Source of the DNA: Bacteroidota bacterium
GTDB lineage: Bacteria > Bacteroidota > Bacteroidia > AKYH767-A > OLB10
Direction of reading: 5' to 3'
DNA length: 64,000 bases
NCBI GenBank assembly: GCA_016714535.1
Contig: JADKDR010000001.1
Coordinates: 466,998-530,997, forward strand
Shown one piece after another: positions 31,973 through 59,349 of this stretch (the first letter of the stretch is position 1; each line of letters opens with the position of its first letter). The position numbers and the translations under genes are program-made. Under the pieces are notes generated by a model. The model was not told the origin of the DNA, searched no databases, and saw nothing but the letters and a program-made list of their open reading frames with translations.

Positions 31973-34900
31973 ATGAAAATCACTCTTTTTCTTTTAGTAT
32001 ATATTATATTCATGCAAAACCTATTGCATGCACAAGTAAATACTTGGCAGCGTTCGCATGGCACAAGCAAAGATGATCACTGCAATAACGTAATAGTTGC
32101 ACAGGATGGCAATTACATTGCCTGCGGCTATAGTTACGGTACTGATAGCCTTGGTACAGCCGACTTTCATATGATTAAAGTGGACTCAACCAACGGAGAT
32201 TTATTATGGACCTGGTCAGAAGGTAATGGTGGCCAGGAAACAATAACAACTATAGAAGAAACAAAAACAGGTGCTTTATTAGTTGCCGGAAATACATCAC
32301 CAGTCCAACTTTATTTGTCCAGTGATGTTATGCTATGCAAGGTTTCAGCAAATGGAAATTTGATTTGGAAACAAACATATCAATTGCCAGATTCGCAATT
32401 CTGCAATGATATTGCTATTCTACCTGATGGCAATATTTGCTTGGTTGGCTTGAATCGTACTGCTGCCGGTGATTCTTCCGGATTTTTTATGAAGGTTGAT
32501 GCAACAGGAAATTTAATTGACTTTAAGCTGTATGACATTATAGGAAGCGAATATTTTTCAGGAATTGTTTTTACAAAAGACTCCATGCTAGCTGTAAACG
32601 GCACAAGTATTCAACCATTTCCTGCCAGCAACAAAATTTGGATGCTAAAATTCGACTGGAATGGAGATACGATTTTTACTAAATTAAATACGTTTTATAA
32701 GTACTACACCGGTGTACCATTAGTGCAAAATATAAATGGAAATTTTATCTTGAATGTGCGCGAATTAAACACTTGGTCTTGGGTACACATCCTTTTGTAT
32801 GATAGCAATTTTAATTTGTTAGACGATTTAAATTGGGCAAACTATTACAGCAGTCCTCTTTGTATATCCGTTTCAGGGATTAATGAAAAATTTACGGTGG
32901 GCAGGTCTGATTCATATGGCCTCATGATTGAGCATTATAAAGATACGGGTGCAATTGAAGATTTAATGAGTTATAATCAGGTATTTCGCCCGAGTAAATT
33001 TTATGGTGGCGGTATTGACTTTGCCCTGTCTACAAAATACTACGCGATAAATAATTCGAAGGAAGGCATTGTTGTAGCAGGCAGTACAACTTTTAACCTC
33101 AACAACTCTTTTGATTTTTGTTTGGTAAAATATTCCGACTCACTTAAGTTAAATTTTAATACGTTAACTCCTACACCAAATTTTGTTACCGATACCATAT
33201 GCGAAAGCGATTCTATTTTGCTTTACGTTATGCTGAATGACAAGCTGAATAATATCTGGCTGATAAATGACGATACAATTTATGGACTTGGAGATTCAAT
33301 TTATGCTAAACACAGCGGGTCTTATACCCCAATTGGTTTTGATATTGAACAGAATTTTATAGCAGGAACCAGTGCACGTGTTGTTGTGTTAGACACGTCA
33401 ATTGTAGGTTCTATGTACATTAGTATTAACAAACCATACTGTAAATATGATGGCGATACAGCAATCATAATAGCACCTTTGAATAGTAAGGCAACTTATC
33501 AATGGCAATTGAATGGGGTAAATATTCCCGGAGCAACAAGCAATCAGGTAAAAGCAAACGGCACCGGAAACTATCAATGTGTGTATAATTTTGGTTGTGC
33601 CACCAAGGTTTCCAATGTTGTATATATAAATGACAGTGCTGCAATTACTGTTAGTTTGAATACCTCAACTGGGATATACCGTAGTTATTGTAGTGGAAGC
33701 AAAATGGATCCTTCATTATTAATAATGCAAGCATCAAACAATGTTACCTATAACTGGTACAATAACGGTAACTTAGTTAATACCGGTACTAATTTGCCTA
33801 CAATCAAAGAAAACGACAGTATTTGGTATGTAGTGTCTGTAAATGGCTGTGGTATAGACACATCATTATTTGCGTATTATATTGATGAGCCTTTACAACA
33901 AACCACTGCATGTAATTATGTTGGTGATACAATAGAATTTTGCAACAATGACAGCGTAGAATTTTGCAGTGGAAGTACAAACTGGAAGCGAAACGGAACT
34001 ACCATACCAAACGTTACATTGCCGTTTTATGCTACACTTGCCGGGTCGTATCAATATTATTATCAAACCGGAAACTGCGGGGCTTGGTCTATTCCCATTT
34101 TTATTGTAGATAATTTACCTGACAGTATTAATTTCAATACCTATCCTAATGATACAGTATGTACAAGTAAGGTTAGTATATATGCCTTGCCATATAATAA
34201 TTTATCAACCTACTCCTGGTATTATAAAGGCAACTATTTAAACGACACTGCCAGCATAACTGCCGACAGTACCGGATGGTATAGGTGTGTTGTTCATTCT
34301 CCCAATTGTTTGCAACAAATAGTGGATAGTATATACATTGTAAAATTGGGGTCAGCTGCAAAATGTATTGCACAGGATTCAATGTATAACACTTGCACCG
34401 ATAGTGTAATAATAAAAGATGCAAGTCCAGATAGTAATGCAAATTATGTATGGTAGAAAAACAATAGTAACATGCAGTTGCCTTCAAATACCACGCAGAT
34501 ATTAGCAAATGAAGCTGCCAACTACAAATTTACTAAGACCATTTATGGCTGCAACTTGAATTCAAATACGATATTAACTCAGGCAAGCTTTAATGAGTTG
34601 ATAGATACAGATACAAACACTTGTGTACCATGTAATGGAAGTGTTAGTATACTAATTGATTCCGTTTTGCAACCACAATACTTATGGTCGAATAGCAATA
34701 CCACAAACAAAAATGAAATGCTTTGCCCTGGTGTTTATTATGTAACAGTAACAAATAGCACATGCAGCAAAGTTATAACCACCTCTATTCTGCAAGGAAT
34801 AAATCTTGATGCCAACTACTCTACAAGCCCGCCAAGTGCAGCAGGATGTGATGGTAATTTTTCTTCCATTATTTATGGTGGAACTCCACCCTACAACAAA

Positions 34901-36022
34901 TCATTTATTCCAATTGCAACAGACAGCACACTTTGCGTAAATACTACTTATAACTTCCTAGTTGAAGATAGCAAAGGTTGCATAGTTACAAAAACCAATG
35001 CCTATTATTACCATAGCGACAATGATACCTTGTGGCCAGGCGATGCTGACAAGAATGGCTATGTTGACAATTATGATTTAATGTCTATCGTAATGCATAA
35101 TTATGAAAACGGTATTGCACGCAATACACTGACCATACAATGGCAACCCATATTTCCAACAATAAATTGGATGGGGACTTTACAAATAAATAATGTTGAT
35201 CGCAAACATTCTGATTGCAATGGAAATGGCCTGATAGACACCATTGATGCTGATGCAATTATTTTAAACTATGGTATTACAGGAAAAAACAGTTATGCAA
35301 AACCGTTTGATCCTGCCGGGCCGGAATTGAAATTTATTTCTGCAAAAACCAACTATGCAGCAGGCGAAATGGTTGAAATAATTGTAGTAGCCGGAACAAG
35401 CCAAAAACCAATATACAAACAAAAGTTTCTGGGCGTACAAGTTGAATTGCCATTACAAGTAATTGAGCCAGGAACAATATCTGCGACTGATATTTACAAT
35501 CAGTCATTTCCATTATGGGATGATTATAAATTTGCACAGAGTGATGGTGCCATACAATGTGATTTTGCACATGCAGTTTTTAATAATTTTAATTTATTCA
35601 ACTGGCATGGAGAAGTTTTCAGAATAAGTTTTCAGGTTGCAAATAATTTGCAAAGTGTTCAATCACATCAAGTTGAAATTAAAAACTACAGACTAATTGA
35701 TATGACTGATGCATCAATAATAATGAATTACCAGCCATTAACCCTAGCATTCAATCCGGTTTCGATAGCCGATCAAATGCATGACAATGGTATTAGTATT
35801 TTCCCTAACCCTGCGAATGGCGAGCTTAATATATACGCTAACAAACAAATGATACGCTATGTTGAACTAACAGATGCAGCAGGCCGCGCAATTGTACAAT
35901 TGGCAACAATGGAAAACCAAATTAAATTAAACATAAGCGATGTTAGCAATGGATTATATCAATGCAAAATAATATTGAATAATGATCAAGAAATAAAGTC
36001 AAAAGTGAATATAATGCATTAG
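31973..36022 (+). pseudogene. Giant T9SS cargo paralog 1 (signal peptide, beta-propeller-like repeats, SprB-type Ig repeats, dockerin-like module, type-A C-terminal domain). Interrupted by an in-frame TAG at 34454-34456.
   Basis: Track ORFs 31973..34456 and 34472..36022 are in the same frame. Alignment to paralog 2 (DTDATYTWYKNNFQVAL vs DSNANYVW*KNNSNMQL) puts the TAG where paralog 2 has Tyr (TAT). C-terminal FPNPANGELNIY...YQCKIILNNDQEIKSKVNIMH sorting tail. Confidence 0.6.
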
Positions 36023-36033
36023 ATATAAAAGGC

Positions 36034-36050
36034 AGCACAATAATTGTGCT
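36034..36050. promoter_or_regulatory. Perfect 17 bp palindrome AGCACAAT-A-ATTGTGCT in the 53 nt spacer between paralogs 1 and 2.
   Basis: Seen directly. Could be a small hairpin (6 bp stem, 5 nt loop) or a dimeric protein-binding site. Confidence 0.25.
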
Positions 36051-36075
36051 AAGTAAATATGAATTCTACCTTTAT

Positions 36076-39000
36076 ATGAAGCAGTTTATAATTGTTATAT
36101 TTATATGTATGAATTTCGCTAATGCTTCAGCGCAAGTCAATACTTGGCGCAGGGCTCATGGGACATCAGGACAAGACTATGCCCAATCTATAAAAGTTGC
36201 GCCAGATGGAAATTTCATAGTTGCCGGAACCTCAAATGGTAGCGATACCACTGGCACCAATAATTTTTATATTATGAAATTGGATTCCTCAAATGGAAAC
36301 AAACTGTGGAGTATATCAATTGGTGATGGCGGATATGAAAATTTGACTGCAATGAAAATCAGTAAAAATGGAGACATTATTGCTGCAGGCGTTAAAGCTG
36401 CTATTATCGGAAATCCCATAAAATTTGAAGATGTAATAGTTTGCAGGATATCGCAACAAGGCAACCTACTATGGCAACAAACTTACCAGTTGCCCGATAC
36501 ACAATTTTGCAAAGACTTAGTTGAGCTTCCGGATTATAGTATATGTATAATAGGATATAACCTGAGTCCGCAAAATGTAAAATCCGGAATGTTTTTGAAA
36601 ATAGATTCAGCTGGAACATTTATTGCCATCAAAAAACATATTTACTCAAGTCCAATTGTTTACCTGGGAATAGTATTTACCCATGATTCAATACTTATGG
36701 TAAATGCAATGAGTAATGAATTATCAGTTTCAAGTATATTATGGATGATTGCATTGAATGATGAAGGTGACACTACCAAGGTTAAATGGACGTCATTTTA
36801 TAAGAGTAATGCCAAGTTTCCAATGGTACAAACATTATGTAACAACTTTATTCAGTCGAAAGAGTATTCGGATACTTGGAGCTGGATTCATATTGTACGT
36901 CATGATAGCACTGGTAACTATAAAGATTATGACGACTATGGTACGTATTATAGTTTTAGTGGCGTTGCATCACCCTCATTAATTTCTTGCAGCGCAGCAA
37001 TTTGCGAAGGCACACATTACGGAGTAGGTGTGAGTATATATAAAGATTCGTTCAACCTGGAGTTTAAAAAATATGCAACGGTTGTAGGGCCTATAAAAGA
37101 TTGGATTTGGACATTTCAGAATCACATTGATGTAAGTTTCTACTTACTTGATTTCCAAACTGAGGGATTAGTTGCTTTGGGCTCAGCTAAATATGGGGGC
37201 AATGGGACTTATGATTATGTTGTAATGAAATTTGATCAGAACCTCGCTTTAAATTTCGATGTTAGTAAGCCGATACCGAACATTGCTTCTGCAAAGAATT
37301 GCGAAAGTGATTCAACCTTATTGTATGTAAAAACGAATAAAAAAAAATATACCACTTGGGTTCATCCTAATGGAAATGTGGTTGCCAATCATGATTCAAT
37401 TTATGTAGTTAACACGAATGAATATGTTCCAATTTCGTATGATGATGATAGCAATTATGTGGTTGGACAAATTGCCACAATTCAATATGTGGATACCTCT
37501 ATCAATCCCATATTAGGAATTAACGGACTTGCAAACTATTGTAAATATGATGGAGATACGGCAATATTAACCGCAACGGCTAATGGAAACGCAACCTACC
37601 AATGGCAATTGAATAACATTGATATACCTGGAGCAATAAATAATGTTTGTAAAGCTAATGGAATCGGAACTTACCAATGCCTATATAATTTTGGATTTGC
37701 ACAACAAGTCTCAAATTTAATTGCTATAAACGATTCATCAAAAACTAAAGTTGACTTAAATACGTCATTAGGAATATACCGCGACTATTGCATCCCTAAA
37801 ATGGATCCATTATTAAAATTTACTACCATTAACAATAATGCTACTTTTAATTGGTATAATAATGATTCTTTAGTTTATACAGGAACAACATTGCCTATAG
37901 CCAATTACAATGATAGCATATGGTATATACAAGCCGTTACTGGATGCGGAACCGATACTTCTCTATATGCGTATTATATCGATGAACCTCTACAACAAAC
38001 TATTGCCTGTAATTTTGCAGGAGATACGATTGACCTTTGCTTAGCTGACAGCATTGAATTATGTGGTGGAGGAACCGCATGGAAACGCAACAACTTATTG
38101 ATTCCGAATGTACAACTACCATTGTATATAAAGCAGACAGGAACGTATCAATATCAATATACCACAGGCAACTGCACTACGTGGTCTTTGCCGATTTATA
38201 TAACTGATAATTTACCAAAGAATTTGCAAATCATTTCTTCACCAAATGATACAGTATGCGATAGCATCGCTACCTTAAATGTTGTACCGGTGGTAAATAA
38301 CTGTATTTATACCTGGTATAAAGATGGAGTAATGATATTAGATTCTACCATATTGTCAGTTAATGAAGATGGCTGGTATAAAAACAGTGCCACAGTAAAT
38401 GGCTGCCCGGCTGCATATACAGATAGTATATTTATTAAGATTGTCAATTTCAAATCAAATTTAACTACCTTAGACACCAATTTGAATCTTTGCAAAGATT
38501 CAATACTGATATATGATCTTTATCCTGACACAGATGCTACCTACACTTGGTATAAAAACAATTTTCAAGTAGCACTAGCAAACCCAACTTTTAGTTTGTG
38601 GGTAACTGATTCGGGTAAGTATCAAGTAAAAAAGGAAAAATATTTATGCAACAGTTACTCTCCAATGATTACAACTTACAAAAATATAGCAACTTCTTTA
38701 AATATTACCAATTCGTCATGTGTAACTTGCAATGGCTCAATTAAATTGACTACTGATTCAGCTTTGCAATTATATTATTTGTGGTCGACAGGTCAAACTA
38801 TAAATGCAATAAATAATTTATGTCAGAATTTGTATACCGTTACAGTTTCGAATACCTATTGTACCAAAACGCTAGGAATAAATATACTAAGCATGCCATT
38901 TATTTCCGCATTTTTTAATCCCAAGCCTCCTGATATTAATATTTGCAATGGCAAACTTAATGCGAACATTGTAGGTGGTAAGCCGCCTTATTCAATTACG

Positions 39001-40119
39001 TGCATTCCTCCGGCCACAGATACTACATTATGCCAGAATACTAGTTATACAATAAATATTACAGATAGTCTTGGGTGTGTTGTAAGCTATAACCAGGCAT
39101 ATTTTTTTGCTACCATTAATGATACCATTTGGCCTGGCGATGCCGATAACAATAACATAGTTGACAACTACGATTTATTACCAATTATAATGCATCATGA
39201 TGAAACCGGCTTTATACGCACCAATCAATCTATCTCCTGGCAACCCCTTACTCCTACTTTTGACTGGTTAGGAATATTACAGCAAAATGGAAAAAATCGC
39301 AAACATGTAGATTGTAATGGCAACGGTGTAATTGACACCAATGATGCTGCCGCAATTAAATTAAATTACAATATAACAGGCAAAACGAATTATCCCCTAC
39401 TAACTGATTTAACCGGACCACCATCAAAAATAAATACGACAAAATTAAATTATATAAATGGCGAATATGTAGACTTGCTTGTAACTGGAGGTTCTTCTAT
39501 AAAAAAAGTACAAGGCCTAAAGTTTATAGGGGCTCAACTAGAAATCCCATCTTACCTTGTTGAACCGGGAACCTTTGTTGCCACTGATTCGAGCAATCAG
39601 CTATACAACTATCTTGAAAATTATAAAATGTTAAATTACGACACTTCTTACCAAGTCGATTTTGCACAATGTATATTTGATAACATCTACCTTAATCAAT
39701 CTTACGGAGAGCTATTTAGAATAAAATTTAAATTGAATTCAAATTTACCATCTAATCTTTCACATACCTTTTCAATAAAAAATTATTTGGCGATAAATAA
39801 TTTTGATACTGCCATATTAATGAATGTGATACCATTAACACTGACTTTTAATTCATATTTGTATGTCGATTTTTTAGAAACTCACGGAGTTTCAATCTAT
39901 CCTATTCCTGCAAAAGATTATGTCGATATTTATTCCCCGAATGAGAGAATTAATCAACTTGATTTAATTGATACAAAAGGAAACATGATATATACATTTA
40001 TGATTGGAGAAAACAACTACAGAATAAATTTAAAATCTATAAGCAATGGTAATTATTATTGCAACATCTATCTTAATAGTAATATTAAATTAAATAAAAG
40101 GATCACTGTTTTACATTAG
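36076..40119 (+). CDS. Giant T9SS cargo paralog 2 (intact, about 1347 aa): signal peptide, beta-propeller-like repeats, SprB-type repeats, dockerin-like module, type-A C-terminal domain.
   Basis: Single uninterrupted ORF. Probable start MKQFIIVIFICMNFANASAQ; the track lists an upstream GTG at 36046. Contains the WPGDADNNNIVDNYDLLPII and DCNGNGVIDTNDAAAIKLNY calcium-binding loops. C-terminal VSIYPIPAKDYVDIY...YYCNIYLNSNIKLNKRITVLH. Confidence 0.7.
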   Translation: MKQFIIVIFICMNFANASAQVNTWRRAHGTSGQDYAQSIKVAPDGNFIVAGTSNGSDTTGTNNFYIMKLDSSNGNKLWSISIGDGGYENLTAMKISKNGDIIAAGVKAAIIGNPIKFEDVIVCRISQQGNLLWQQTYQLPDTQFCKDLVELPDYSICIIGYNLSPQNVKSGMFLKIDSAGTFIAIKKHIYSSPIVYLGIVFTHDSILMVNAMSNELSVSSILWMIALNDEGDTTKVKWTSFYKSNAKFPMVQTLCNNFIQSKEYSDTWSWIHIVRHDSTGNYKDYDDYGTYYSFSGVASPSLISCSAAICEGTHYGVGVSIYKDSFNLEFKKYATVVGPIKDWIWTFQNHIDVSFYLLDFQTEGLVALGSAKYGGNGTYDYVVMKFDQNLALNFDVSKPIPNIASAKNCESDSTLLYVKTNKKKYTTWVHPNGNVVANHDSIYVVNTNEYVPISYDDDSNYVVGQIATIQYVDTSINPILGINGLANYCKYDGDTAILTATANGNATYQWQLNNIDIPGAINNVCKANGIGTYQCLYNFGFAQQVSNLIAINDSSKTKVDLNTSLGIYRDYCIPKMDPLLKFTTINNNATFNWYNNDSLVYTGTTLPIANYNDSIWYIQAVTGCGTDTSLYAYYIDEPLQQTIACNFAGDTIDLCLADSIELCGGGTAWKRNNLLIPNVQLPLYIKQTGTYQYQYTTGNCTTWSLPIYITDNLPKNLQIISSPNDTVCDSIATLNVVPVVNNCIYTWYKDGVMILDSTILSVNEDGWYKNSATVNGCPAAYTDSIFIKIVNFKSNLTTLDTNLNLCKDSILIYDLYPDTDATYTWYKNNFQVALANPTFSLWVTDSGKYQVKKEKYLCNSYSPMITTYKNIATSLNITNSSCVTCNGSIKLTTDSALQLYYLWSTGQTINAINNLCQNLYTVTVSNTYCTKTLGINILSMPFISAFFNPKPPDINICNGKLNANIVGGKPPYSITCIPPATDTTLCQNTSYTINITDSLGCVVSYNQAYFFATINDTIWPGDADNNNIVDNYDLLPIIMHHDETGFIRTNQSISWQPLTPTFDWLGILQQNGKNRKHVDCNGNGVIDTNDAAAIKLNYNITGKTNYPLLTDLTGPPSKINTTKLNYINGEYVDLLVTGGSSIKKVQGLKFIGAQLEIPSYLVEPGTFVATDSSNQLYNYLENYKMLNYDTSYQVDFAQCIFDNIYLNQSYGELFRIKFKLNSNLPSNLSHTFSIKNYLAINNFDTAILMNVIPLTLTFNSYLYVDFLETHGVSIYPIPAKDYVDIYSPNERINQLDLIDTKGNMIYTFMIGENNYRINLKSISNGNYYCNIYLNSNIKLNKRITVLH

Positions 40120-40145
40120 CTAAGTTTAAGATTTATAAAACCTAT

Positions 40146-43100
40146 ATGAAACAACTACTATTAATTTTTTTGTTATTGATTTTTGGGTTTCAATCCAAAG
40201 CCCAGGTAACTACCTGGTGCAGGGCACATGGAACTCAATTTCACGACTATATCAAAGAAATAAAGGTAGCAAATGATGGCCATTATATTGCATCAGGTCA
40301 TTCAATTAATCCCGACACTAACTTACTTGCAGATTTTTATGTTATAAAAGTGGACTCTTCAAATGGCGAATTGATTTGGCAAACCTATGTGAGTGCGGCC
40401 GAAAGTCAGAAGTTGGTTGCTATGGATATTTCGAGCAATGGTGAGATAATTTTGGTTGGCAGCAATGACGCGAAAGATGTTTCTTATTGGGGAAATAATG
40501 GAGACCAAGTAGCTGTTGCTAAACTAGCATCTAACGGCAAGCTTATTTGGAACAAAATTATAGCCATACCCGATACCCAATATTGTCATGATGCAATTTG
40601 TTTGCCTGATGGCAGTATTGCAATTGTAGGTCTTAATAGAAATGCCGCAGGTGTTTTTAGCAATTTTTTTATGAAACTTGATTCGGCTGGTGATTTTCAA
40701 TTTATCAAGCTATATGGTAGCACGCCAAGCGATAGGTTTAGTCATATAATAAATACCAACGATTCCTTAATAGCAGTTTTTGGAAACACCAATAGTAATA
40801 GCCAATTTGTAAAATTTTGGTTTCTGAAATTTGATTTGAATGGCGATACCATTTTCGCAAATAATTCGTACTTTGGATCGGACGGTGTGTTTACTCAAAT
40901 GAAAAATGATACGTATGTAGTAAACGGAAGAGTTTCTCTTGGCTCGAATGTTGCAATTTTAAATTTTGACAGTTCATTTTCTTTGACAGGTTCTAATAAT
41001 TACAGTTCATATAGCAACTATCCAAAATCAATAAGCGCTTCCAAAATTACAAACAAGGTAATTGTTTCAAATTATCAATATTCAGGTAAATATTATGTAT
41101 TTAAAGACACTGCTAGTCAGATGGTCATTGATAAACAATTTTATATATTTAATGACCAAACTCTGTTTTACCTTTTGCAAGGGAATGCCCCATTGAGTTG
41201 GTATGAGATAGGAAATAGTCAAGAAGGGTTCGTAGCTGCTTTTGAAAAATCAATGAATTCTAGCATGGGATTAGATTTTATAATATCTAAGTACGATCAG
41301 AATTGTAATCTTAATTACAGTAATAGTAAACCAACAGTAAACGTTCCTGCCGGTGACACTTTGTGCTTAGGTGATTCAGTCTTACTATATATTACAACAA
41401 ACAAAAAACTTTACACCAACTGGATATCAAATGATGGAAAATTCTACCATAAAGGTGATAGCTTTTATGTTAAGAGTACTGGAAATTATTTTGCAGTATG
41501 TTATGATATTGACAGCAATTTGATATTAAGTGAGATACGAAATATATATTTTAAAGACACTGTGCCAAGTTCCTCAATAAAAGTAAATGGCCCATCAGAA
41601 TTTTGCAGACTTGCCGGTGATTCACTTTTTTTATCAGTTGATTCAAACATATATGTTCAATTACAATGGCAACTAAATGGAATAGATATTCCTGGTGCTA
41701 CTAAAAAAAGTGTATAAAGTACTTGCTACAGGAAATTATCGTTGCGCTTTTATTTATTCCTGCGATACAATCTTCTCAGCTCCAGTATTTATAAATGATT
41801 CCACTCCACCTAATGTATCACTTAATTCCTCAATTGGCACCTACTACCCTTACTGTAACAATAAAATGTTTCCGCAATTGTCGGCAACTTCCAGCACCAA
41901 AAACACTTTATTCAAATGGTATAATAATGGAATCCTTATAGATTCAAGTCAATCTCAATACTTAAATCCAAGTTATGGGAATGATAGTATATGGCATGTG
42001 GTGGCAGTTACTGCCTGCGGCACCGATACATCACTTTATGCTTACTATAGTTTGGAACCGCAACAACAAACTCTTGCATGTGGCATGGCAAACGATACTG
42101 CGATTTTGTGCTTTAATGATAGTATTGAATTTTGCACAGGAGGCACCTATTGGTACCTCAATGGAATTTACACAAACAATGTTACGCTACCACTTTATAT
42201 TAGCAAGCCGGGAACATATAAATATGAGTACACAACAGGCAACTGCACTACATGGTCCTTGCCAATATATGTTATTGATAAAATGAATGATAGTTTGAAA
42301 ATAAAAATATCACCCAATGACACAGTGTGTAATAAAAAAGTGACATTAAATGTAATGAGCCCGCAAGCAAACGTGCTATATACTTGGTATAGAAATGGAC
42401 TTTTTTTTAGCACCAATGATACCGTTATCACAGGGGTATCAGGTAACTTTCATTGTGAAGCCTTTATAAATGGTTGCGATACTTTATATTCAGACACTGT
42501 CTATATTCAGACTGATTCAGTGCCGGCCGAAATATTTAAGCTAAATAATTTTACCAATTTATGCGATGCTGACTCTATATTCTTATTCGACTATAATTTT
42601 GACACCAATTATGTATATGCATGGAAAAGGGTAGGTAACAGCTTTGTATATAGCAATACTTACTTTTATCGCCCGTTAGCAGTTGGGAATTACTATTTTA
42701 CAAAGTCTTCGAAAACTTGTGTTGTGATTTCTGATACTGTGCAAATTACATCTAACAATTCTAACCTAAACGCAACCATAACTACAACGCCCTCGGCTTG
42801 CAGCCCATGCAATGGCAGTGCAACTATCACCGCTAATAACCCTACCAACTTTAATTACTTGTGGAGCAATTCCCAAACCAATCAAACCGCTTACAATTTC
42901 TGTGGAGGTACATATACAGTTACAGTTAGCGTACCGGGCTGCAGTAAGAGTTTTAATTTCATGTTGGGCAACAGCACTCCGGTATCTGCAATTGCAACTA
43001 CTACAACGCCTTCTTTTGGCATATGTGACGGAACAATTGCCTTTAATATTATCGGAGGCTTTGCACCTTATCAAACTTCGCTTATTCCAAGTGCCCCGTT

Positions 43101-44196
43101 GACTGCACTTTGTCAGGATGTAAATTATAAGGCTACACTAACTGATAATAAAGGATGTACATTTGTAATAGACTCTGCGTTTTACTACAAACTAAGTTAC
43201 GATACAATATGGCCTGGCGATGCTGATAATAATGGCTTTGTTGACAATTATGATGTTGTACCCTTGCTACTGCAAGATGGCCGTACAGGAGCAACTCGCG
43301 TTGATACAACTATTGCTTGGCATCCCATCTTTCCGGCATATGATTGGAATGGGACTAAGCTTTACAACAATATAAATTGCAAACATATAGACACAGACGG
43401 AAATGGAATAATCAACATAAAAGACACTGCGGCTATCACTCTAAACTATGATGTTACAGGCAAGAAAAATTACAACCTGCAATTAAATCCGCAAGGGCCT
43501 GAGCTATATGTTACTGCCAATGCATCACAGTTTATGCCTGGCAATCAAGTGGTACTGAATTATTATGCAGGCACGCAATCAAACCCCTTTTATATTCTAC
43601 GCGCTTTTGCTGCACAGACATTTATTCCTAAAGAAGTTATTGAGCCCGGCACATTTAATTTAAGCTCACAAAATAATTTTTTAACAAACTTTTCTTTTGG
43701 GTATTTCTTTGTTAAATCAGATACTAATTTTCAAATAGATGTAGCTTTTGGTAATTATAAATATGGGTTTCCAAATGTTTATGGAGAACTATTTACCATT
43801 TCATTCGATGTTGCGAGCTCCCTATCGCAAGTAGTGAATTTTGCTCCAGCTATTAATAATTATACGGCTCATGTTTCAAATGAATTACAAATAGCATGCT
43901 CACAATCAATTACGCCACTTACCTTTTTGCCTGTAGGTATTTATGAAACACATTTGCAAGACAATATAATTATCTATCCTCATCCGGCTAAAAATGAAGT
44001 TTCAATCAGCTCTTCTAATGACATAATCAAAGCCATTAAGATTTATAACTCAAGCAGTAAAAATGTTTTCTCCGCAAATTCAAATTCGAATAGATTTACT
44101 ATCCAAACCGAAAATTTCCCAAACGGATATTATCAAATTCAGATACAACTCGGTAATGGAAACTATGCAAATAAAAAATTAATAATAATTCATTAA
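40146..44196 (+). CDS. Giant T9SS cargo paralog 3. The reading frame is broken by a +/-1 shift in an A7 tract (41703-41709).
   Basis: Track ORFs 40146..41717 and 41695..44196 overlap. Both paralogs 1 and 2 read through the equivalent position (YQWQLNxxxIPGA...NGxGxYQCxYNFG). Same domain order as paralogs 1 and 2. C-terminal IIIYPHPAKNEVSI...YYQIQIQLGNGNYANKKLIIIH. Confidence 0.6.
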
Positions 44197-44222: not shown

Positions 44223-47200
44223 ATGCAATCGATAAAAAAAACAACCGCAATTTGCTTTCTGTTAATGATGCAAATAACATTGCATGGACAAGTAATTGTG
44301 AAGCAAGAATGCATAGGTGGCACTGGTCAAGAATCGAAACCAAGCATGGTATTATTGCCTTACGAATCGAAATTAGTTGGCAGTTCAACAAATTCTGGAA
44401 TTGGTGGCGATAAGTCGCAAAATTCTCGTGGTGGCTATGATTATTGGATTATAATGCTCGACTCAAATAATGTAAAAATTTGGGACAAAGGTTACGGTGG
44501 CTCTGCAGACGATATTCTGATAGAAGTTATTTCTGTATCAGGAGGAGGATTTTTATTAGCCGGCCACTCAAAAAGCGACAGCAGCTTTGATAAAAACGAA
44601 CACAACTATGGCTCAATAAATTCTAATGACTTTTGGATTATTAGAATAGATGATGCCGGAAATATACTTTGGCAAAAGACAATAGGCGGCTCATCAAATG
44701 AAGAATTAGCAAATGTAATTCAAACATCTGACGGAGGTTTTTTGATAGGTGGAATTTCTGACTCGCCAATCTCTGGTTTAAAAACGGAAGCCAATATTGG
44801 TTGGTTCGATTTGTGGTTGGTAAAATTAGATGCCAATGGGAATTTAATTTGGGAAAATACCATTGGTGGGTCAGGAAATGAATTGTGTGCCAAGATGCAT
44901 CAGCTGCCCAATGGCAACATCATTATTGCATCTAGCAGTACAAGCGGAGTGAGTGGAGACAAAACAAGCACAAATAAAGGAAGTTATGATTTTTGGCTTT
45001 TGCAAATTGATAACGGTGGCAATATACTTTCTCAATTTAGCATTGGAGGCAACAGCAGTGACTATTGTAAAAAGGCAGCTCCATCAACTGATGGAAGCAT
45101 AATTGTTGCCGGATATTCTGCATCAGGCGCTGGCTTTGACAAAACCCATGCTTCAAAAGGAGCCAATGATTATTGGATAATGAAAACAGACACCATGCTC
45201 AACATTATCTGGCAAAAAACAATTGGAGGCAATGCCGATGATAATCTTGTAGACTTTTCAGAAAAAATCAATAATGAAATTGTCCTTCTTGGTTCATCAT
45301 TTTCAAATGTAGGTGGTGATAAAAAGAAAAATTGTCGCGGTTTCTCAGACTTTTGGATTGTAGGTCTTGATGCTTCGGGAAATATTAATTATGAAAACAC
45401 AATAGGCGGAACCCAGGCAGATATCCCTACTGCAATTTCTTGCTTCGGAAAATACCAAATGATGTTTGTAGGGCAATCAGCCTCAAATGCAGGTTTTGAA
45501 AAAAAATGTGTTTCGAGCAATACTGATATTTGGCTATGCAACGCTTCCGACAAATATTATACGTTTAGAGGAAATTTATTTTATGATTTAAACCAAGATG
45601 GAATTAAAAATGGAAATGATGTTTTTGCAGCAAATCGCAATGTTTTCCTTTCTGATTACTCACAATTTGTACTAACAAATTCAATCGGCAATTATGAAAT
45701 AACGGTAATTGATTCAGGCCAATACATATTGAAGCCAGAGATTGTCAACTTGTGGACTTCGCATCCAGATTCAATTTCCATCTCCACCGATTCTAATAGA
45801 ATATATAACCTAAGTCCTTTTTATTATGATACGGATACACAATTAATTGATTTAAGAATTACGATTACGCCTACTTCCGCATTTCGTCCCGGCTTCGATG
45901 CCAGTTATACTATTACCTATGAAAATATCGGAAATACTGCTATTGCCCCTACAATTATTTTTTATCCACATAATTCCGTTACGTTTTTAGCTGCAAGTCA
46001 AACTCCAAGTTCAATTTATAGTGATTCAGTAATTTGGTCACTGGGTATATTGCCTGTGTTTGGGAAAGGAACTATTTCGATAAGTGTTAATGTTGGCTTA
46101 GTCCAAATTGGTTCTTTATTAAATTCGTCTTGTAAAATAGATCCCATGAGTCAAGATTATTTTACATCTAATAATACGCATGCATGGGAAGTTATTGTAA
46201 CAGGCTCATACGATCCCAATGATATAAGTGTAAATATTGATACAATATTCACAACTCAGCTTAATGATCCTCCATTTTTATATTATCATATCAATTTTCA
46301 AAACACTGGAAATGATACAGCCTTCAATATACGTGTAGTTAATCCGATAGACACAGCAATTCTTGATCTCACATCTTTTGAATTAATTGCCAATTCACAC
46401 CCCATAGATGCTACGTTTAAGGCAAGCACTCAATTTATGGAATTTCAATTCGACAATATATTACTTCCAGATAGCAATATTGATGAACAGAACAGCCATG
46501 GGTATGTTACGTATAGAATAAAACCAAAGGAATCTACCAAAGATGGAAGTATTATACATAGTGTAGCAAGCATATATTTTGATTTTAATGCTGCGGTAGT
46601 AACCAATACTGCCACTACCTATTTTAAAATGCCTGAAAATTTCTTTGGAACTAATATTTCGGGGGCAATTAATGTTTGCCTTGATACCAGTTTAATATTT
46701 AACTATAAAACAGACGCAAATGCCGGCTCCCTTTATCAATGGATTATACCAGATGCTTTTATTATTGGTGATTCTACCTTAAATAATATTGATATAAAAT
46801 GGCAAAGTGCAGGATTGAAGCAAATGATATTAATAGAATGCGACAGCAATAATTTCGTTTGTGACACCGATATGATTTTGGTAAATGTGTATCCCACACA
46901 ATTACTCATAACTAACAGTGTAATTTGTAATGGCGACAGCGTTTTACTTGGTACCTCCTGGCAATCGCAAGCAGGCATATATTATGATACCCTGGCAACA
47001 TACTATGGTTGCGATTCTATTCTAAAAAACATATTAGCAGTTAATCAAACCTTCAATTCAATCCTATCTTATAACCTATGTATGGGCGATAGCATTTATG
47101 CTGGCGGGCAATGGCAAATAACTAACGGAACTTATTTTGACAACTATACATCTCAAAATGGCTGCGATAGTTTGGTGACAACAAATGTACTTTTCCACCC

Positions 47201-47615
47201 AACGTATATGGTATATGATACATTACAAATTGCAGTTGGCGACAGTGTTTTTCTATTTGGAAACTGGCAATCAACTACTGGAGTCTATTCAGGAAATTTA
47301 GTTTCAGTATATGGCTGCGACAGCATTATGAATACCTACTTAAGTGTAGTAACTGCGCTAACCAATACAATCAAACGTTTTGATTTCAAAATATTTCCGA
47401 ATCCCGTCACGGATGAGTTATGCATTCAATTCAATATGATTTCTATGCCATTGTCAAGGGCAACTATCTATACGGAGTCTGGGGTGCAGGTTTCTTCATT
47501 TGCATTTGATAAAGAACTTATTTGCTATGATACTTCCGTTTTGCAATCAGGAAATTATCTTGTCGAAATCAAGAATGGGAATAGAAAAATGATAAAAAAG
47601 TTTATTAAAAAGTAA
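44223..47615 (+). CDS. Giant T9SS cargo protein 4 (1130 aa): about seven SBBP-like beta-propeller repeats, DUF11/CARDB-like repeat domains, cysteine-containing C-terminal repeats, type-A C-terminal domain.
   Basis: Signal peptide MQSIKKTTAICFLLMMQITLHGQ. Repeats of about 50 aa (GGSxxDxxxxVxxTSDGGFLxxGxSxSxxSGxKT...DxWLVKLDxNGNLIW). C-terminal KIFPNPVTDELCIQF...YLVEIKNGNRKMIKKFIKK. Confidence 0.7.
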   Translation: MQSIKKTTAICFLLMMQITLHGQVIVKQECIGGTGQESKPSMVLLPYESKLVGSSTNSGIGGDKSQNSRGGYDYWIIMLDSNNVKIWDKGYGGSADDILIEVISVSGGGFLLAGHSKSDSSFDKNEHNYGSINSNDFWIIRIDDAGNILWQKTIGGSSNEELANVIQTSDGGFLIGGISDSPISGLKTEANIGWFDLWLVKLDANGNLIWENTIGGSGNELCAKMHQLPNGNIIIASSSTSGVSGDKTSTNKGSYDFWLLQIDNGGNILSQFSIGGNSSDYCKKAAPSTDGSIIVAGYSASGAGFDKTHASKGANDYWIMKTDTMLNIIWQKTIGGNADDNLVDFSEKINNEIVLLGSSFSNVGGDKKKNCRGFSDFWIVGLDASGNINYENTIGGTQADIPTAISCFGKYQMMFVGQSASNAGFEKKCVSSNTDIWLCNASDKYYTFRGNLFYDLNQDGIKNGNDVFAANRNVFLSDYSQFVLTNSIGNYEITVIDSGQYILKPEIVNLWTSHPDSISISTDSNRIYNLSPFYYDTDTQLIDLRITITPTSAFRPGFDASYTITYENIGNTAIAPTIIFYPHNSVTFLAASQTPSSIYSDSVIWSLGILPVFGKGTISISVNVGLVQIGSLLNSSCKIDPMSQDYFTSNNTHAWEVIVTGSYDPNDISVNIDTIFTTQLNDPPFLYYHINFQNTGNDTAFNIRVVNPIDTAILDLTSFELIANSHPIDATFKASTQFMEFQFDNILLPDSNIDEQNSHGYVTYRIKPKESTKDGSIIHSVASIYFDFNAAVVTNTATTYFKMPENFFGTNISGAINVCLDTSLIFNYKTDANAGSLYQWIIPDAFIIGDSTLNNIDIKWQSAGLKQMILIECDSNNFVCDTDMILVNVYPTQLLITNSVICNGDSVLLGTSWQSQAGIYYDTLATYYGCDSILKNILAVNQTFNSILSYNLCMGDSIYAGGQWQITNGTYFDNYTSQNGCDSLVTTNVLFHPTYMVYDTLQIAVGDSVFLFGNWQSTTGVYSGNLVSVYGCDSIMNTYLSVVTALTNTIKRFDFKIFPNPVTDELCIQFNMISMPLSRATIYTESGVQVSSFAFDKELICYDTSVLQSGNYLVEIKNGNRKMIKKFIKK

Positions 47616-48627: not shown

Positions 48628-50463
48628 TTTGAGTAATCACCTTTACCGCATTTTCGTATACGAGCTTTGTTTCGGTAGCAGCATTTGGAGCAAAGCGCGC
48701 AAACTCGCATTTATCAAGCGTTTGGGTAAGCATGGCAATGGTTTCGGACTGCACTTGCTTTGCCTGCAATTTTTCGGTTGCGTTCTCTTTACTAAAATCA
48801 CTTAGGGGCAAAGTAATTTTATCGCTTACATATCCTATCAGTGCTTTATATGTTTCATCATAAAACTCGTTAGTTTTATTTTCATTTTGAAACTTGCTGG
48901 CTAGTGCTAATTTTTTTGAAGCAATGCGTCCGGCACCCCGGCTTTTTGCTAAGGCAACATTACCTTGCAATTCGCTTAGTCGCGACTTATAAGCTATAGC
49001 TCCTGCCCCTAACAGCAACGGCAATAATAGCAGCGAATAAAATTTCCATGTACCATAAAAGTCGTTGCCTCCGGCCGATTGCAAAGCCTCACCGGTTTTA
49101 TATAACGTATATCCTTACTTATTACAGCTACATCTGTTTTGTTGGCTCCGGCATTTTCTATCACCGTTGCATTATTGCCATCGCCCTTGGCCACTTTAAT
49201 GGTGAAGGGGCCTTTGGCCACTTCCTTATATGTTTTTGTTTCGAGGTCGAAGTAGGAAAATCGCAATGCATCAATGGTGTATTCCCCTTCATGTCGGGGT
49301 ATAAGCAGATATTCAAATGTTTTGTTTCCACTTGTTCCGCTTTCAGAAACATTGATGTTATCATCCACCTTGGGGTCATAAGTTTCTATATCTCCCGGCA
49401 CACTTATTTTTGGGGCTTCAACTAATTTCAAATTTCCCTTACCACTAACTTTTACTTTTAAGGTAACCGCTTCGTTGGCTTTGGTTTCGCCCTTGTCAAG
49501 TTGTGCATCAAACTGCAGTCGGCCTACAGCTCCATTAAATGATGCAGGTGCATTTGCCGGCAAGTCTTTTACATTTATCTTAAAAGCATCGCTGCGTATC
49601 TCAACTTTTTGATTTTGATATCCTCCTCCAAAAAAAGGATCATTAAAAATATCAAATGGATCGTTCGGATTACGATTGCGTTTTACCTGCACCTGCGCAA
49701 TAGCCTCGCCCTTCATAGGGTCTATGGTGATGGTACCACTTTGCTGTGGGAATAAAATAAATTTCTTAACTACCAATGTTGCGTAACGCGTCCCATTATA
49801 ATTCTCGTAAGTAGCAGGTGTGTTTTCGGGCACATTAATTTCTGAACTCCAAAATCCATTAAAGGATGGCAGATCGGAAATCATGGGACTAGACAAGGCA
49901 ACACTAGTATATAGTTTATAGGTAATAAGTACTCCCTCGCCTATATATAGATTACTTTTATCTATGGAGGCACGTATAAATACTTGTTTATTGGAAGTTG
50001 CCGATGTAGCATTATTAGCTCCATTGTTTACTCCCGGATTTTGCGATTGTGCCTGATTAGATGCCTGACCTTTGGTGCAGGTCATCGTGATTGCGTTACT
50101 GGTATATGTTTTGCCATCAATATTCACACTGGCACTTCCTATTTTCAATGAGCCTTCCTTTAATGGAGTTAGGTAGTAGCTGTATGATGAGGATACGGTA
50201 GTACGCCCGTTTACCATGGTAAAATTATTGCTTTGAAAAGGTCCGCCAATTACCTGAAAATCTTTAAAGTCAGGCTGCTTAAAGGCATTGCCATTTCCTC
50301 CTTCAATGGTAAAAGTTATTTGAAAACGGTCGCCAACGGCAACCTGATTTCTGTTAACGGTAGCTGTAAACGATTGTGCTCCAACAAACTGATAAAAGAA
50401 TAACATCGCCCCACAAAGGATTATGGAATGAGTCAGTAGTCTTTTTATGTTTTCCATTACCAT
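48602..50463 (-). CDS. batD: BatD-like protein. The reading frame is interrupted by an apparent 1 nt indel in a T4/A4 run at 49096-49099.
   Basis: Track ORFs 49009..50463 and 48602..49084 overlap. Adding one A gives the continuous read ...DIRYIKTGEALQSAGGNDFYGTWKFYSLLLLPLLLGAG, which is a typical BatD C-terminal TM helix. N-terminal signal peptide present. Confidence 0.6.
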
Positions 50464-56596: not shown

Positions 56597-57850
56597 TTGC
56601 CCCCTGCGCAAATTATAATTTTGTTACCTCTATTTACAATAAACATTCTTAAATCACAGTGTCCTGTAAATCCCAATGTAACATTAATCAATGCAGGAGG
56701 AACCGTTGTTTTACCTTCAGGCACTTATAATGACATTATTATTGATAATGCTACCACAGTCGAAATAAACGCTTCCACAATTATCCAAATGAATCCGGGC
56801 AATAGAATAATAGTGAACCCCGGCAGTACCTTATTCATAAACGATGGCACAATTGAAAATGAAGATGATGAAAACATATTAGAAAGCGAATTGAGAATTG
56901 CGCAGGATATACCTGTTACCCTTGAATATGAGCTGGGTATTTTAGAATTAGCCAAGACTACACTTTATCAACGAATACGCGATAGTATTTTAGATATTGA
57001 TACAAGCACTGTTTTGCAGAATTTTTATAGTCTAAATCAAAATGGCCGTTACAATAATTTTGCTGATGCATCACATTTACGTCTAGATTTTGCAAAAGCA
57101 ATAGATGATTTACACTTAGATTATGAACCACAAATCCAATTAATAAAAAGTTATTTGGAAAATAAAAGCCTTCTGTTGGCTAGTATCGGCACCAACAGCA
57201 ATTTGATTTCTTACAAGACAACCTTAACAAATACATTTGTAATACAAGGTAATATACAACAAAGTGAAATTGCAATGCGAAATGCTTATTTATTAAAAAA
57301 GCCAATCTTAGACGCTCTGCAAACCAACTGGAGCAATAGTATCAGTTCTATTACCGATAATACATTAATGACTACAAATCTTCAACAATTAACGCCAATA
57401 TTAAATAAGATAGTATTTGATAATTTATACTCACTAACCCAAGGGGACATTGAACTTGTTACAACGCTTGCCAATGCATGCCCTTATACTGATGGTGTTG
57501 CTGTTAACTATGCACAAGGTATAATAAAATCGCTTGACCATACCTTTGTAGCAGACAATAAATATAATTGTACACAGGTTGGCATTAATTATAAAGCTTC
57601 GAATGTTGTAAATGATAAAGGGCAACACATTCCATTTTCAATTGTTGATGAAGTAATTTCATTGCCTATTGAGATAATGCAAGATTATATCGAAATAAAT
57701 GTGTTCGACATGTATGGAAAGGTGATAGAAAAAACCAACCCTAACAAGAATACAATAGGCACTACTTCTTGGCCTAATGGAATTTATGTGCTGCAAGTGA
57801 TTAGAAAAAACCGTACTTCTCGAAATTACAAATTTAATCTAGTAAAGTAA
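56597..57850 (+). CDS. Hypothetical secreted protein with T9SS type-A C-terminal domain.
   Basis: TTG start with a hydrophobic N-terminus (MPPAQIIILLPLFTINILKSQ), a beta-helix-like Asn/Thr/Ile-rich N-terminal segment, and a C-terminal NVFDMYGKVIEKT...GIYVLQVIRKNRTSRNYKFNLVK tail. Confidence 0.55.
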   Translation: MPPAQIIILLPLFTINILKSQCPVNPNVTLINAGGTVVLPSGTYNDIIIDNATTVEINASTIIQMNPGNRIIVNPGSTLFINDGTIENEDDENILESELRIAQDIPVTLEYELGILELAKTTLYQRIRDSILDIDTSTVLQNFYSLNQNGRYNNFADASHLRLDFAKAIDDLHLDYEPQIQLIKSYLENKSLLLASIGTNSNLISYKTTLTNTFVIQGNIQQSEIAMRNAYLLKKPILDALQTNWSNSISSITDNTLMTTNLQQLTPILNKIVFDNLYSLTQGDIELVTTLANACPYTDGVAVNYAQGIIKSLDHTFVADNKYNCTQVGINYKASNVVNDKGQHIPFSIVDEVISLPIEIMQDYIEINVFDMYGKVIEKTNPNKNTIGTTSWPNGIYVLQVIRKNRTSRNYKFNLVK

Positions 57851-59349
57851 TGAAGCGCATCTATCTAATTGCCTTTTTGTTTTTGTTGTCAGCCATAGGC
57901 TTTTCACAATCAATGAAAGACAATATTATTTATGGGTCAGGCTTAAATGCTTTTCCGTTGTGGGGTCCTGCTATTATAAAATACTCGAATGGAGTGTTTA
58001 CTAATTATGCCATTAATTCAGGTTTTGGAATTACAATGACTTCATTAGCAGCAAATGACTCAAGCGGCAACTTACTTTTTTATAGTAATGGCTTGTATGT
58101 AAACAATAGATTCCATAATCGAATAAAAGGCTGTGATTCAGTATTTATTGATTCAACTTTCTATACTGACCCGTTTTATCTTGACATAGGCTTAGGTGTA
58201 GCGGATGGGCTTTTCTCTATACCAAAACCCAACGTTCCCCATCACTATCTTGTGTTCCAATTAAACTATGATTTCAGTATTTTTTATCAGGATGCACGGC
58301 TTACTTATTTTGAAGTGGACATGGATGCTGACAGTGGTCGTGGGGAGGTTATCTCATGTAAAACAAATGTAGTGTACGATACGCTTGCCGATGGTTTTTT
58401 ATCAGGCGTAAAGCATGCCAATGGGCGCGATTGGTGGATAGTATGCTTAGAGGCCTTTACCAATAAATACTACAAAGTATTGGTAACACCCGACACCATG
58501 CTGGTAAGTGAACAACTCATTGGACCAATTTTAGATTCTATTGAATATACCGGGCAAGGAAATTTTAGCAACGATGGCAACTGGTATGCACGTGCCGATG
58601 CTAACGGAGGAATTGTAATAATGCAATTTGACCGCTGTACCGGCATGTTTAGTAATCCCATACATGATACCACGCTTATTATGCAATGTGGGGGTGTCGG
58701 CTTTTCGCCAAATAATAAATTCTTGTATGTGTCAACATGGCTCGATTTGTATCAATACAATTTAGAAGATTCGGCAAATATGGTAGCTACTAAAATTCAC
58801 GTAGCGCATACTGATACATTCATTATGCCTAGTTCGCCTTTCTTTAATACCTTTTACAGGCATTTTCTGGGGCCTGATAATAAACTGTATGTAATAACAC
58901 AGGCCAACTACAAAGCCATCAATATTATTAACCAACCCGATAACCTGGGCCTTGCATGCGATGTGCAGCAACATGCTTTTCCATTGCTTAAACTTAATCA
59001 GCGCTCGGCTCCCAATTGGCCTAATTATGATTTAGGCCCAGTGTTGGGTAGTGTGTGCGATAGTTTAGGCCTTGGGGTAACACCTAATGCAGTGTTCCAG
59101 GATTTACGTATCAGTCCCAATCCCGCTATGGAATGGTTCTATATCAACTATACCTTGCCACAGAATACTTCGGCATTGGCAGTGTTGTACGATATAATGG
59201 GCACCCGCATAGACCAACGAATGTTGTATGGCCACTTTGCTTCGCTGCGGTGGGATTTGCCGCACTTGTCAACAGGGGTGTATATGTTGCATATTACAGG
59301 CAAGGGGATTAACACTTGTAAACGTGTTATGGTCATTGACTCGCAATAA
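57850..59349 (+). CDS. Hypothetical secreted protein with T9SS type-A C-terminal domain.
   Basis: Signal peptide MKRIYLIAFLFLLSAIGFSQ. C-terminal RISPNPAMEWFYINYTL...GVYMLHITGKGINTCKRVMVIDSQ. Confidence 0.6.
   Translation: MKRIYLIAFLFLLSAIGFSQSMKDNIIYGSGLNAFPLWGPAIIKYSNGVFTNYAINSGFGITMTSLAANDSSGNLLFYSNGLYVNNRFHNRIKGCDSVFIDSTFYTDPFYLDIGLGVADGLFSIPKPNVPHHYLVFQLNYDFSIFYQDARLTYFEVDMDADSGRGEVISCKTNVVYDTLADGFLSGVKHANGRDWWIVCLEAFTNKYYKVLVTPDTMLVSEQLIGPILDSIEYTGQGNFSNDGNWYARADANGGIVIMQFDRCTGMFSNPIHDTTLIMQCGGVGFSPNNKFLYVSTWLDLYQYNLEDSANMVATKIHVAHTDTFIMPSSPFFNTFYRHFLGPDNKLYVITQANYKAINIINQPDNLGLACDVQQHAFPLLKLNQRSAPNWPNYDLGPVLGSVCDSLGLGVTPNAVFQDLRISPNPAMEWFYINYTLPQNTSALAVLYDIMGTRIDQRMLYGHFASLRWDLPHLSTGVYMLHITGKGINTCKRVMVIDSQ

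Follow-up and report, generated by a model that had tools for sequence, protein, structure and literature searches.

The stretch of DNA analyzed here, 64,000 nucleotides of contig JADKDR010000001.1 from a Bacteroidota bacterium (assembly GCA_016714535.1), hereafter the window, carries three tandem plus-strand paralogous genes whose products are ∼1,350 residues long and each have a Sec signal peptide (MKITLFLLVYIIFMQNLLHAQV, MKQFIIVIFICMNFANASAQV, and MKQLLLIFLLLIFGFQSKAQV, read by eye from the translations; that of paralog 2 probably starts at M11, nucleotide 36076). The C-terminal end of each protein has the same layout, namely a dockerin-like module, a cohesin-like domain, and a type A sorting domain of the type IX secretion system (T9SS), with coordinates and scores given in Table 1. 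All three sorting domains score above the Por_Secre_tail cut-off of 27 bits, and those of paralogs 1 and 3 also qualify under TIGR04183. The C-terminal modules of the other two proteins are 47% and 35% identical to those of paralog 2, and from their sequences we regard the three as real paralogs. They would be Sec-exported, T9SS-sorted, adhesin-like surface proteins with a β-propeller-like N-terminus followed by Ig/SprB-like repeats, in which the last ∼340 residues form the conserved cassette that is the subject of this analysis.

A preliminary description of this DNA had reported two calcium-binding-loop-like segments with a type I dockerin signature in each paralog. All six of the peptides it quoted are present on the plus strand, essentially where it had placed them. 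The 12-residue calcium-loop pattern D.[DN].[DN]..[ILVM][DN]..D, searched in all six-frame pieces of at least 50 residues of the whole window (42,161 residues in total), occurs exactly six times, at the reported sites only, against a mean of 0.03 occurrences in residue shuffles. As in the type I dockerins of clostridial and ruminococcal cellulosomes (PF00404), both loops span 12 residues and carry Asp or Asn ligands at positions 1, 3, 5, 9, and 12, to which all six loops conform; the Asp residues at positions 1 and 12 are invariant, or almost so, across the family alignments. The two loops start exactly 57 residues apart in all three paralogs.

Database profiles did not recognize the window copies. 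The Pfam Dockerin_1 scan was not significant, with paralogs 1 and 2 scoring 14.4 and 13.4 bits against a gathering score of 22.9 bits, in alignments that cover both repeats (profile positions 1 to 53 of 57), and with no match to paralog 3 at E ≤ 1. Moreover, a phmmer search of the PDB sequences with a window copy returned single-loop matches only (E > 0.9), and NCBIfam models matched nothing in the module region. Taken alone, the sub-threshold and single-loop matches would therefore amount to the outcome that the preliminary description had itself named as evidence against a dockerin. The sub-threshold Dockerin_1 scores also fit a generic pair of EF-hand-type calcium loops, unrelated to dockerins, beside an unrelated Ig-like spacer. 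The noncanonical loop spacing favors such a pair as well, as does a profile of the dockerin-like part by itself, whose matches among the PDB sequences are dominated by calmodulin-type EF loops as summed single-loop matches; this profile lends no support to a dockerin identity because it cannot separate a dockerin from an EF-hand. The relatives, on the other hand, argue for a dockerin. When 38 family members were scanned singly against Pfam at E ≤ 0.01, Dockerin_1 and Cohesin were the only families matched: Dockerin_1 by 22 members across both repeats (best E = 4.5e-8), Cohesin by 11 (best E = 6e-7), and the EF-hand families by none. Three full-length relatives (P0005, P0010, and P0032) exceed the Dockerin_1 gathering score, with 24.3 to 24.8 bits over profile positions 1 to 53 of 57, and the family profile matches the dockerin 2y3n_B in the PDB at E = 1.7e-3. 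Further, the modeled repeats lack entering helices and the neighboring domain is specifically cohesin-like, as described below, and a chance adjacency of look-alikes of both partners of one known system is unlikely. We therefore consider the generic loop pair very improbable.

Because the sequence past the second loop resembled a β-sandwich, residues 1015 to 1283 of paralog 2 were modeled with AlphaFold. A first model, from a 4-sequence alignment, had a predicted TM-score (pTM) of 0.63, with a predicted local distance difference test score (pLDDT) of 70 to 92 in the ∼155-residue cohesin-like part and below 50 in the dockerin-like part. A second model, covering the 255-residue unit at 39109-39873 and based on a 38-sequence alignment, reached a mean pLDDT of 90.3 (87.5 to 90.3 across five models) and a pTM of 0.84. 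In this second model, the only helices of the dockerin-like part comprise residues 20 to 28 and 77 to 85, where the pLDDT is 90 or higher; each begins at loop position 10 (loops D11 to D22 and D68 to D79), and no helix precedes either loop. Structure prediction, which had been proposed as a check of the segment, thus yields at high confidence two loop-helix repeats without entering helices, which is the F-hand loop-helix arrangement seen in dockerins. From the end of helix 1 to the start of loop 2, a segment of 45 residues is predicted to be nonhelical with a pLDDT above 90, and among the insertion residues Gly34, Arg37, and Trp53 are invariant and Trp44 nearly so in the family alignments.

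This insertion sets the module apart from type I dockerins. The repeats in PDB dockerin-type sequences lie 33 to 34 residues apart (8x39_A), and the spacing of 57 arises because a conserved, nonhelical insertion of ∼24 residues, carrying the Gly, Arg, and two Trp residues, separates the repeats; by this measure, the module falls outside the canonical type I dockerins. Neither the canonical ∼33-residue spacing nor a three-helix fold is present, the model containing two helices only. Loop positions 10 and 11 are Asn-Tyr in the first repeat and variable in the second, so that the module lacks internal symmetry. Its place in the protein also differs, being internal, ahead of a cohesin and a T9SS tag, rather than at the end of an enzyme. 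From sequence and model together, we read the segment as a divergent dockerin with two loop-helix calcium sites. The preliminary assignment is thus upheld by the loops, the model, and the relatives as far as a dockerin-type module with a double calcium loop is concerned, and the spacing speaks against its designation as type I. The dockerin-like part of most members aligned in A3 and A5 contains three conserved cysteines, namely (i) before SVWPGD, (ii) before the DW motif, and (iii) at position 2 of loop 2 (DCNGDG). Only the loop-2 cysteine is kept in paralog 1 (35216-35218) and paralog 2 (39313-39315), and paralog 3 has none (DTDGNG), so that a family-typical disulfide seems to have been lost in the window paralogs.

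The ∼150 residues that follow each dockerin-like segment are predicted to fold as a cohesin. In a Foldseek search of the PDB with the first model, cohesins occupied all of the first 50 ranks (E values as low as 4e-7, target-normalized TM-score up to 0.78), including type I, type II, and non-cellulosomal cohesins of Archaeoglobus fulgidus and Clostridium perfringens. With the second model, in which the domain has a pLDDT of ∼90, cohesins made up the top 41 matches and 49 of the 50 listed (E down to 6.5e-8), the sole non-cohesin among them, ranked 42nd, being a pilin domain of C. perfringens. The domain thus shares the β-sandwich fold of the cohesins (PF00963, including the non-cellulosomal 2xdh of A. 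fulgidus and 2vo8 of C. perfringens), with Foldseek E values of 6.5e-8 to 1e-5 and target-normalized TM-scores reaching 0.76 to 0.78, but is only 8 to 17% identical to them in sequence. Pfam Cohesin found no match in the window copies. Among the relatives, P0008 exceeds the Cohesin cut-off of 24.1 bits with a score of 26.2, P0005 has Dockerin_1 and Cohesin matches side by side, and the family profile matches PDB cohesin sequences at E = 3e-4. The preliminary description had seen no obvious cohesin partner in the window; this was mistaken because a cohesin-fold domain adjoins each dockerin-like segment as the next domain of the same polypeptide. In contrast to scaffoldins, with their cohesin-only arrays, the cassette has a single cohesin-like copy per unit, always after its own dockerin-like part. 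A comparable position is occupied by the Ig-like domains that adjoin the sorting domain in T9SS cargo, such as the IgSF domain of Porphyromonas gingivalis RgpB, likewise β-sandwiches placed just before a type A sorting domain; the sandwich of the cassette differs in being cohesin-like and in having a predicted calcium-binding, dockerin-like partner, and other T9SS cargo in the window lacks it.

Throughout a family that is very large in Bacteroidota, the two halves are paired one to one. When the three paralogs and one metagenomic relative served as the query of an exhaustive profile search, matching cluster representatives numbered 5,889 at E ≤ 1e-3, of which 1,039 reached E ≤ 1e-30, and the ∼250-residue dockerin-cohesin stretch was matched as a single piece. 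A word-indexed homolog search was nearly blind to the family (1 match with a single sequence, 12 with a 38-sequence profile). Separate hidden Markov models (HMMs) of the dockerin-like and cohesin-like parts were built from the 38-sequence alignment A3, which did not contain paralogs 1 and 3; in the window, they matched the three paralogs and nothing else. Among 151 retrieved proteins, a single unit is present in 146, two units in three, and three units in one, always with dockerin-like and cohesin-like parts at 1:1; the last protein, P0131, is truncated at its N-terminus and includes part of an additional unit. In these proteins, a median of 6 residues (range 2 to 29) separates the two HMM matches, with Asn86 of the linker invariant and His91 nearly so, and the distance from the end of the unit, directly ahead of the sorting domain, to the C-terminus has a median of 93 residues. 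All 10 full-length relatives scanned carry Por_Secre_tail.

The same picture emerged when one genome per species was scanned independently. A search with the alignment of the three paralogs found no relatives in these species-representative genomes, which therefore include neither the source genome nor its close kin. Scanning with a single peptide pattern, [KM]HADCNGD, and a six-sequence alignment subset yielded 308 confirmed stretches, almost all of them from Bacteroidota, with carriers in Taibaiella, Flavipsychrobacter, other Chitinophagales, Flavobacteriales, Saprospiraceae, and Lewinellaceae. The 79 loci kept contain 88 units, again at 1:1, with a median of 92 residues from the unit end to the stop codon. 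Carriers with complete genomes include CP197396.1 and Taibaiella soli. No relative with a dockerin-like or cohesin-like part alone was found among the 151 proteins and 79 loci, sets that are biased toward full-length matches. Whole units were duplicated together in P0006, P0007, P0038, and L076, and one protein among the 79 loci carries three units. As to the arrangement of the two or three complete units in these proteins (P0006, P0007, P0038, and L076:2065-6603), those of P0038 are directly adjacent, and those of P0006 and L076 lie ∼485 residues apart. Two cassette genes stand head to tail within 3 kb at seven of the 79 loci (L011, L025, L028, L039, L040, L052, and L060); tandem arrays of paralogs, as in the window, are therefore recurrent in other Bacteroidota genomes. 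Two cassette loci on short contigs from metagenome-assembled genomes labeled Bifidobacterium (L013, CAZSUF010000271.1) and Gammaproteobacteria (L042, JANPKH010000391.1) are probably binning contaminants rather than real occurrences outside Bacteroidota.

The N-terminal parts of the relatives vary, comprising PKD, DUF7948 with an SBBP β-propeller, PKD_6, SprB repeats, or a galactose-binding-like domain. No enzymes were found among the 10 full-length relatives, and no glycoside hydrolase domains in these or in the paralogs. We rejected a cellulosome- or amylosome-type system because there are no enzymes and no separate scaffoldin and because the fusion is strictly 1:1 in cis. The adhesin-like, nonenzymatic character of these N-terminal parts would suit another function, in which the cassette binds some other ligand (a surface polysaccharide, lipopolysaccharide, or a component of T9SS attachment), with the sandwich acting as a carbohydrate- or protein-binding module and the calcium loops merely stabilizing it. 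The cohesin fold is a β-jelly-roll of the kind shared with carbohydrate-binding modules, and its site directly before the sorting domain would put the cassette beside the lipopolysaccharide anchor. We nevertheless consider ligand binding unlikely, as nearly all of the top structural matches are cohesins with no carbohydrate-binding module among them, the Pfam matches in the region are limited to Dockerin_1 and Cohesin, none of the tests made points to a ligand, and the other T9SS cargo of the window, lacking the cassette, shows that it is not needed for anchoring in general.

Our preferred reading, which we hold tentatively and at a little less than an even chance, is that the two halves pack together as one rigid, calcium-stabilized, membrane-proximal module. 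The cassette starts with the divergent dockerin, with its two predicted calcium-binding F-hand loop-helix repeats and the family-specific insertion of ∼24 residues, and continues through a short conserved linker into the cohesin-fold β-sandwich and the type A sorting domain. The dockerin-like half would pack in cis onto its own cohesin-like half, making the pair a single rigid two-domain unit stabilized by calcium. Type A T9SS cargo loses its sorting domain by cleavage and is then anchored to anionic lipopolysaccharide through the C-terminus thus created; after these steps, the unit would become the membrane-proximal base of the anchored protein, holding the adhesive N-terminal part off the cell, and the dockerin would not be a free plug for a separate scaffoldin. 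If domains of 95 and 155 residues were oriented independently of each other, we estimate that the pTM would be ∼0.6; compared with this limit, the pTM of 0.84 suggests that the predictor fixes the relative position of the halves. The cis packing is further favored by (i) the conserved, nonhelical insertion between the loops with its pLDDT above 90, (ii) a linker that is short and conserved, the linkers of cellulosomal proteins being variable and Pro/Thr-rich, and (iii) the behavior of the halves as one evolutionary unit, matched in single stretches, duplicated jointly, and kept at 1:1. The preliminary description had inferred cohesin-dockerin docking on the cell surface. Both types of partner are indeed present, and yet the fixed 1:1 fusion in cis argues against a plug seeking a separate scaffoldin.

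Several points weigh against packing in cis. The pTM argument is an indirect one in which the face of the cohesin contacted by the dockerin-like part is not seen, and a single-chain prediction would place interacting domains in cis even if their real contact were intermolecular. To our knowledge, all experimentally characterized cohesin-dockerin pairs act between molecules. A protein with both modules can also recognize itself in trans, as in Ruminococcus bromii Amy4, whose own cohesin was shown experimentally to bind its own dockerin, an observation read as multimerization (PMC4611034); proteins of A. fulgidus combine both modules in one polypeptide as well (PMC4611034). The cassette resembles Amy4 in having both partners in one secreted protein. 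It differs in that Amy4 is a Gram-positive amylase with a C-terminal dockerin, whereas here the dockerin-like part precedes the cohesin-like part, with a linker of 2 to 29 residues, next to a T9SS sorting domain, and in nonenzymatic, adhesin-like proteins of Bacteroidota. Finally, the strict membrane-proximal position, the tandem arrays, and the multi-unit proteins would fit a network in trans equally well.

In such a network, the dockerin-like part would bind the cohesin-like part of another cargo molecule, of the same or another cassette protein, through calcium-dependent head-to-tail or lateral links that would make chains or a network of T9SS cargo, held at one set distance from the outer membrane. 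Each half has its homolog in one partner of a known intermolecular pair, and, in addition to the Amy4 precedent, genomes have several cassette genes, often in tandem (three here, two at seven of the 79 loci), the presence of two or three units would make a protein multivalent, and the equal distance from unit to sorting domain would suit lateral pairing. The short conserved linker and the high single-chain pTM favor a fixed cis unit instead, as does the lack of relatives with one half only, within the bias of the sets noted above. Further, cross-recognition between the window paralogs is not assured because their modules are only 35 to 47% identical. We regard docking in trans, the chief alternative to the cis reading, as possible but doubtful. 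Its extension into a self-assembly device of the Bacteroidota cell surface, in which the dockerin-like half would plug into a neighbor's cohesin-like half in a calcium-dependent manner after T9SS export and anchoring to lipopolysaccharide, appears somewhat less likely still; if true, it would join adhesin-like cargo proteins of thousands of kinds into chains or a lattice and would parallel cellulosome assembly in a Gram-negative setting without cellulolysis.

In Gram-positive cellulosomes, the cohesin-dockerin pair serves as the textbook plug and socket, and cohesin-like and dockerin-like modules outside cellulosomes are already known. Statements that Bacteroidota lack such components are routine in papers on the phylum (e.g., PMC5831590 and PMC6247017). 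Proteins that carry both modules have precedents in Amy4 and A. fulgidus, and a scaffoldin anchored by a C-terminal domain and acting in trans has been proposed in Cloacimonadota: the cellulosome-like system of Candidatus Stygibacter, also a Gram-negative lineage with cohesin and dockerin domains and a conserved C-terminal surface-attachment domain, has dockerins on enzymes and tandem cohesins on a separate scaffoldin of 3,755 residues (PMC8542988). That is a classical trans layout, in contrast to the one dockerin fused to one cohesin per protein seen here. We found no literature description of a fixed cassette of dockerin, cohesin, and sorting domain, with the proviso that the 2009 survey of non-cellulosomal modules by Peer et al. 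may list such Bacteroidota proteins, and no Pfam or NCBIfam model covers the dockerin-cohesin unit. The window shows a divergent but recognizable dockerin-cohesin pair fused as one unit directly before a T9SS sorting signal, in an unannotated cassette that is widespread (thousands of protein clusters, with nearly all confirmed genomic copies in Bacteroidota). Should the pairing be in cis, surface-anchored cargo would have a new kind of calcium-stabilized module at its base, in which a binding pair has become frozen as a single domain; should it be in trans, it would be a general mechanism organizing the Bacteroidota surface layer.

Table 1. Features of the window discussed in the text (positions count from the first nucleotide of the window)
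Feature	Position	Strand	Details
Paralog 1, gene	31973-36022	+	T9SS cargo gene; open reading frames 31973-34456 and 34472-36022
Paralog 1, dockerin-like module	35018-35287	+	loops 35042-35077 and 35213-35248; family dockerin HMM E = 1.7e-27
Paralog 1, quoted peptides	35033-35098, 35213-35272	+
Paralog 1, cohesin-fold domain	35312-35758	+	family cohesin HMM E = 2.9e-23; fold assigned by way of the model of paralog 2
Paralog 1, T9SS type A sorting domain	35798-36007	+	Por_Secre_tail E = 4.3e-12, 46.6 bits; TIGR04183 E = 7.6e-11
Paralog 2, gene	36046-40119	+	intact T9SS cargo gene, 1357 residues
Paralog 2, dockerin-like module	39115-39387	+	loops 39139-39174 and 39310-39345; model pLDDT 90-96
Paralog 2, quoted peptides	39130-39195, 39310-39369	+
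Paralog 2, cohesin-fold domain	39406-39855	+	two AlphaFold models, Foldseek against PDB
Paralog 2, T9SS type A sorting domain	39895-40104	+	Por_Secre_tail E = 1.5e-6, 28.8 bits
Paralog 3, gene	40146-44196	+	T9SS cargo gene; open reading frames 40146-41717 and 41695-44196
Paralog 3, dockerin-like module	43195-43470	+	loops 43219-43254 and 43390-43425; family dockerin HMM E = 1.2e-28
Paralog 3, quoted peptides	43210-43275, 43390-43449	+
Paralog 3, cohesin-fold domain	43486-43914	+	family cohesin HMM E = 1.1e-17
Paralog 3, T9SS type A sorting domain	43972-44187	+	Por_Secre_tail E = 1.2e-9, 38.7 bits; TIGR04183 E = 9.4e-7
Head region, paralog 1	31973-33200		weak propeller-type matches
Head region, paralog 2	36076-37300		weak propeller-type matches
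Head region, paralog 3	40146-41400		weak propeller-type matches
Head region, neighboring 1130-residue cargo protein	44223-45500		weak propeller-type matches
Other T9SS cargo gene	6606-9689	-	sorting domain; M4 peptidase
Other T9SS cargo gene	17101-19080	-	sorting domain; reprolysin and SprB repeats
Other T9SS cargo gene	44223-47615	+	sorting domain; DUF11, DUF7619, and PKD_6
Other T9SS cargo gene	57850-59349	+	sorting domain; unknown protein
Other T9SS cargo gene	59791-61998	-	sorting domain; FG-GAP
Other T9SS cargo gene	62055-63980	-	sorting domain; PKD with type B CHU_C signal
BatD-family gene	49009-50463	-	E = 6e-49

Two of the three paralogous genes are split in the window sequence. In paralog 1, an in-frame TAG (34454-34456) separates the two open reading frames, with the junction NYVW*KNN aligning with YTWYKNN in paralog 2; this is either a real nonsense mutation, making the gene a pseudogene, or a base error in the metagenome-assembled genome. 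Paralog 3 is split by a frameshift within an A7 run at 41703-41709, and deletion of one A from this run restores GATKKVYKVLATGNYRC, which parallels paralog 2; the frameshift could be an assembly error or reflect slippage-prone phase variation. In the public records MBK8845389-92, labeled "hypothetical protein" or "T9SS type A sorting domain-containing protein," the downstream piece of paralog 1 corresponds to MBK8845389.1 (P0002 in our set) and that of paralog 3 to MBK8845392.1 (P0003), and paralog 2 corresponds to MBK8845390.1 (P0004), with identity from residue 22 on. Over their first ∼400 residues, the three paralogs and the neighboring 1130-residue cargo protein gave weak matches of β-propeller type only (PQQ_2/BamB, DUF5122, and the delta-60 repeat); judged by sequence, this head looks like an uncharacterized propeller-like domain common to four adjacent genes.

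Six further genes of the window bear T9SS sorting domains, so that T9SS machinery is likely to be present in the source genome. The dockerin-cohesin cassette is absent from all six; it is therefore an optional accessory, and we rejected the idea that it forms part of the T9SS export signal and consider a role in export unlikely. The BatD-family gene heads a run of same-strand open reading frames reaching down to ∼56180, which looks like a Bat/aerotolerance-type operon unrelated to the cassette.

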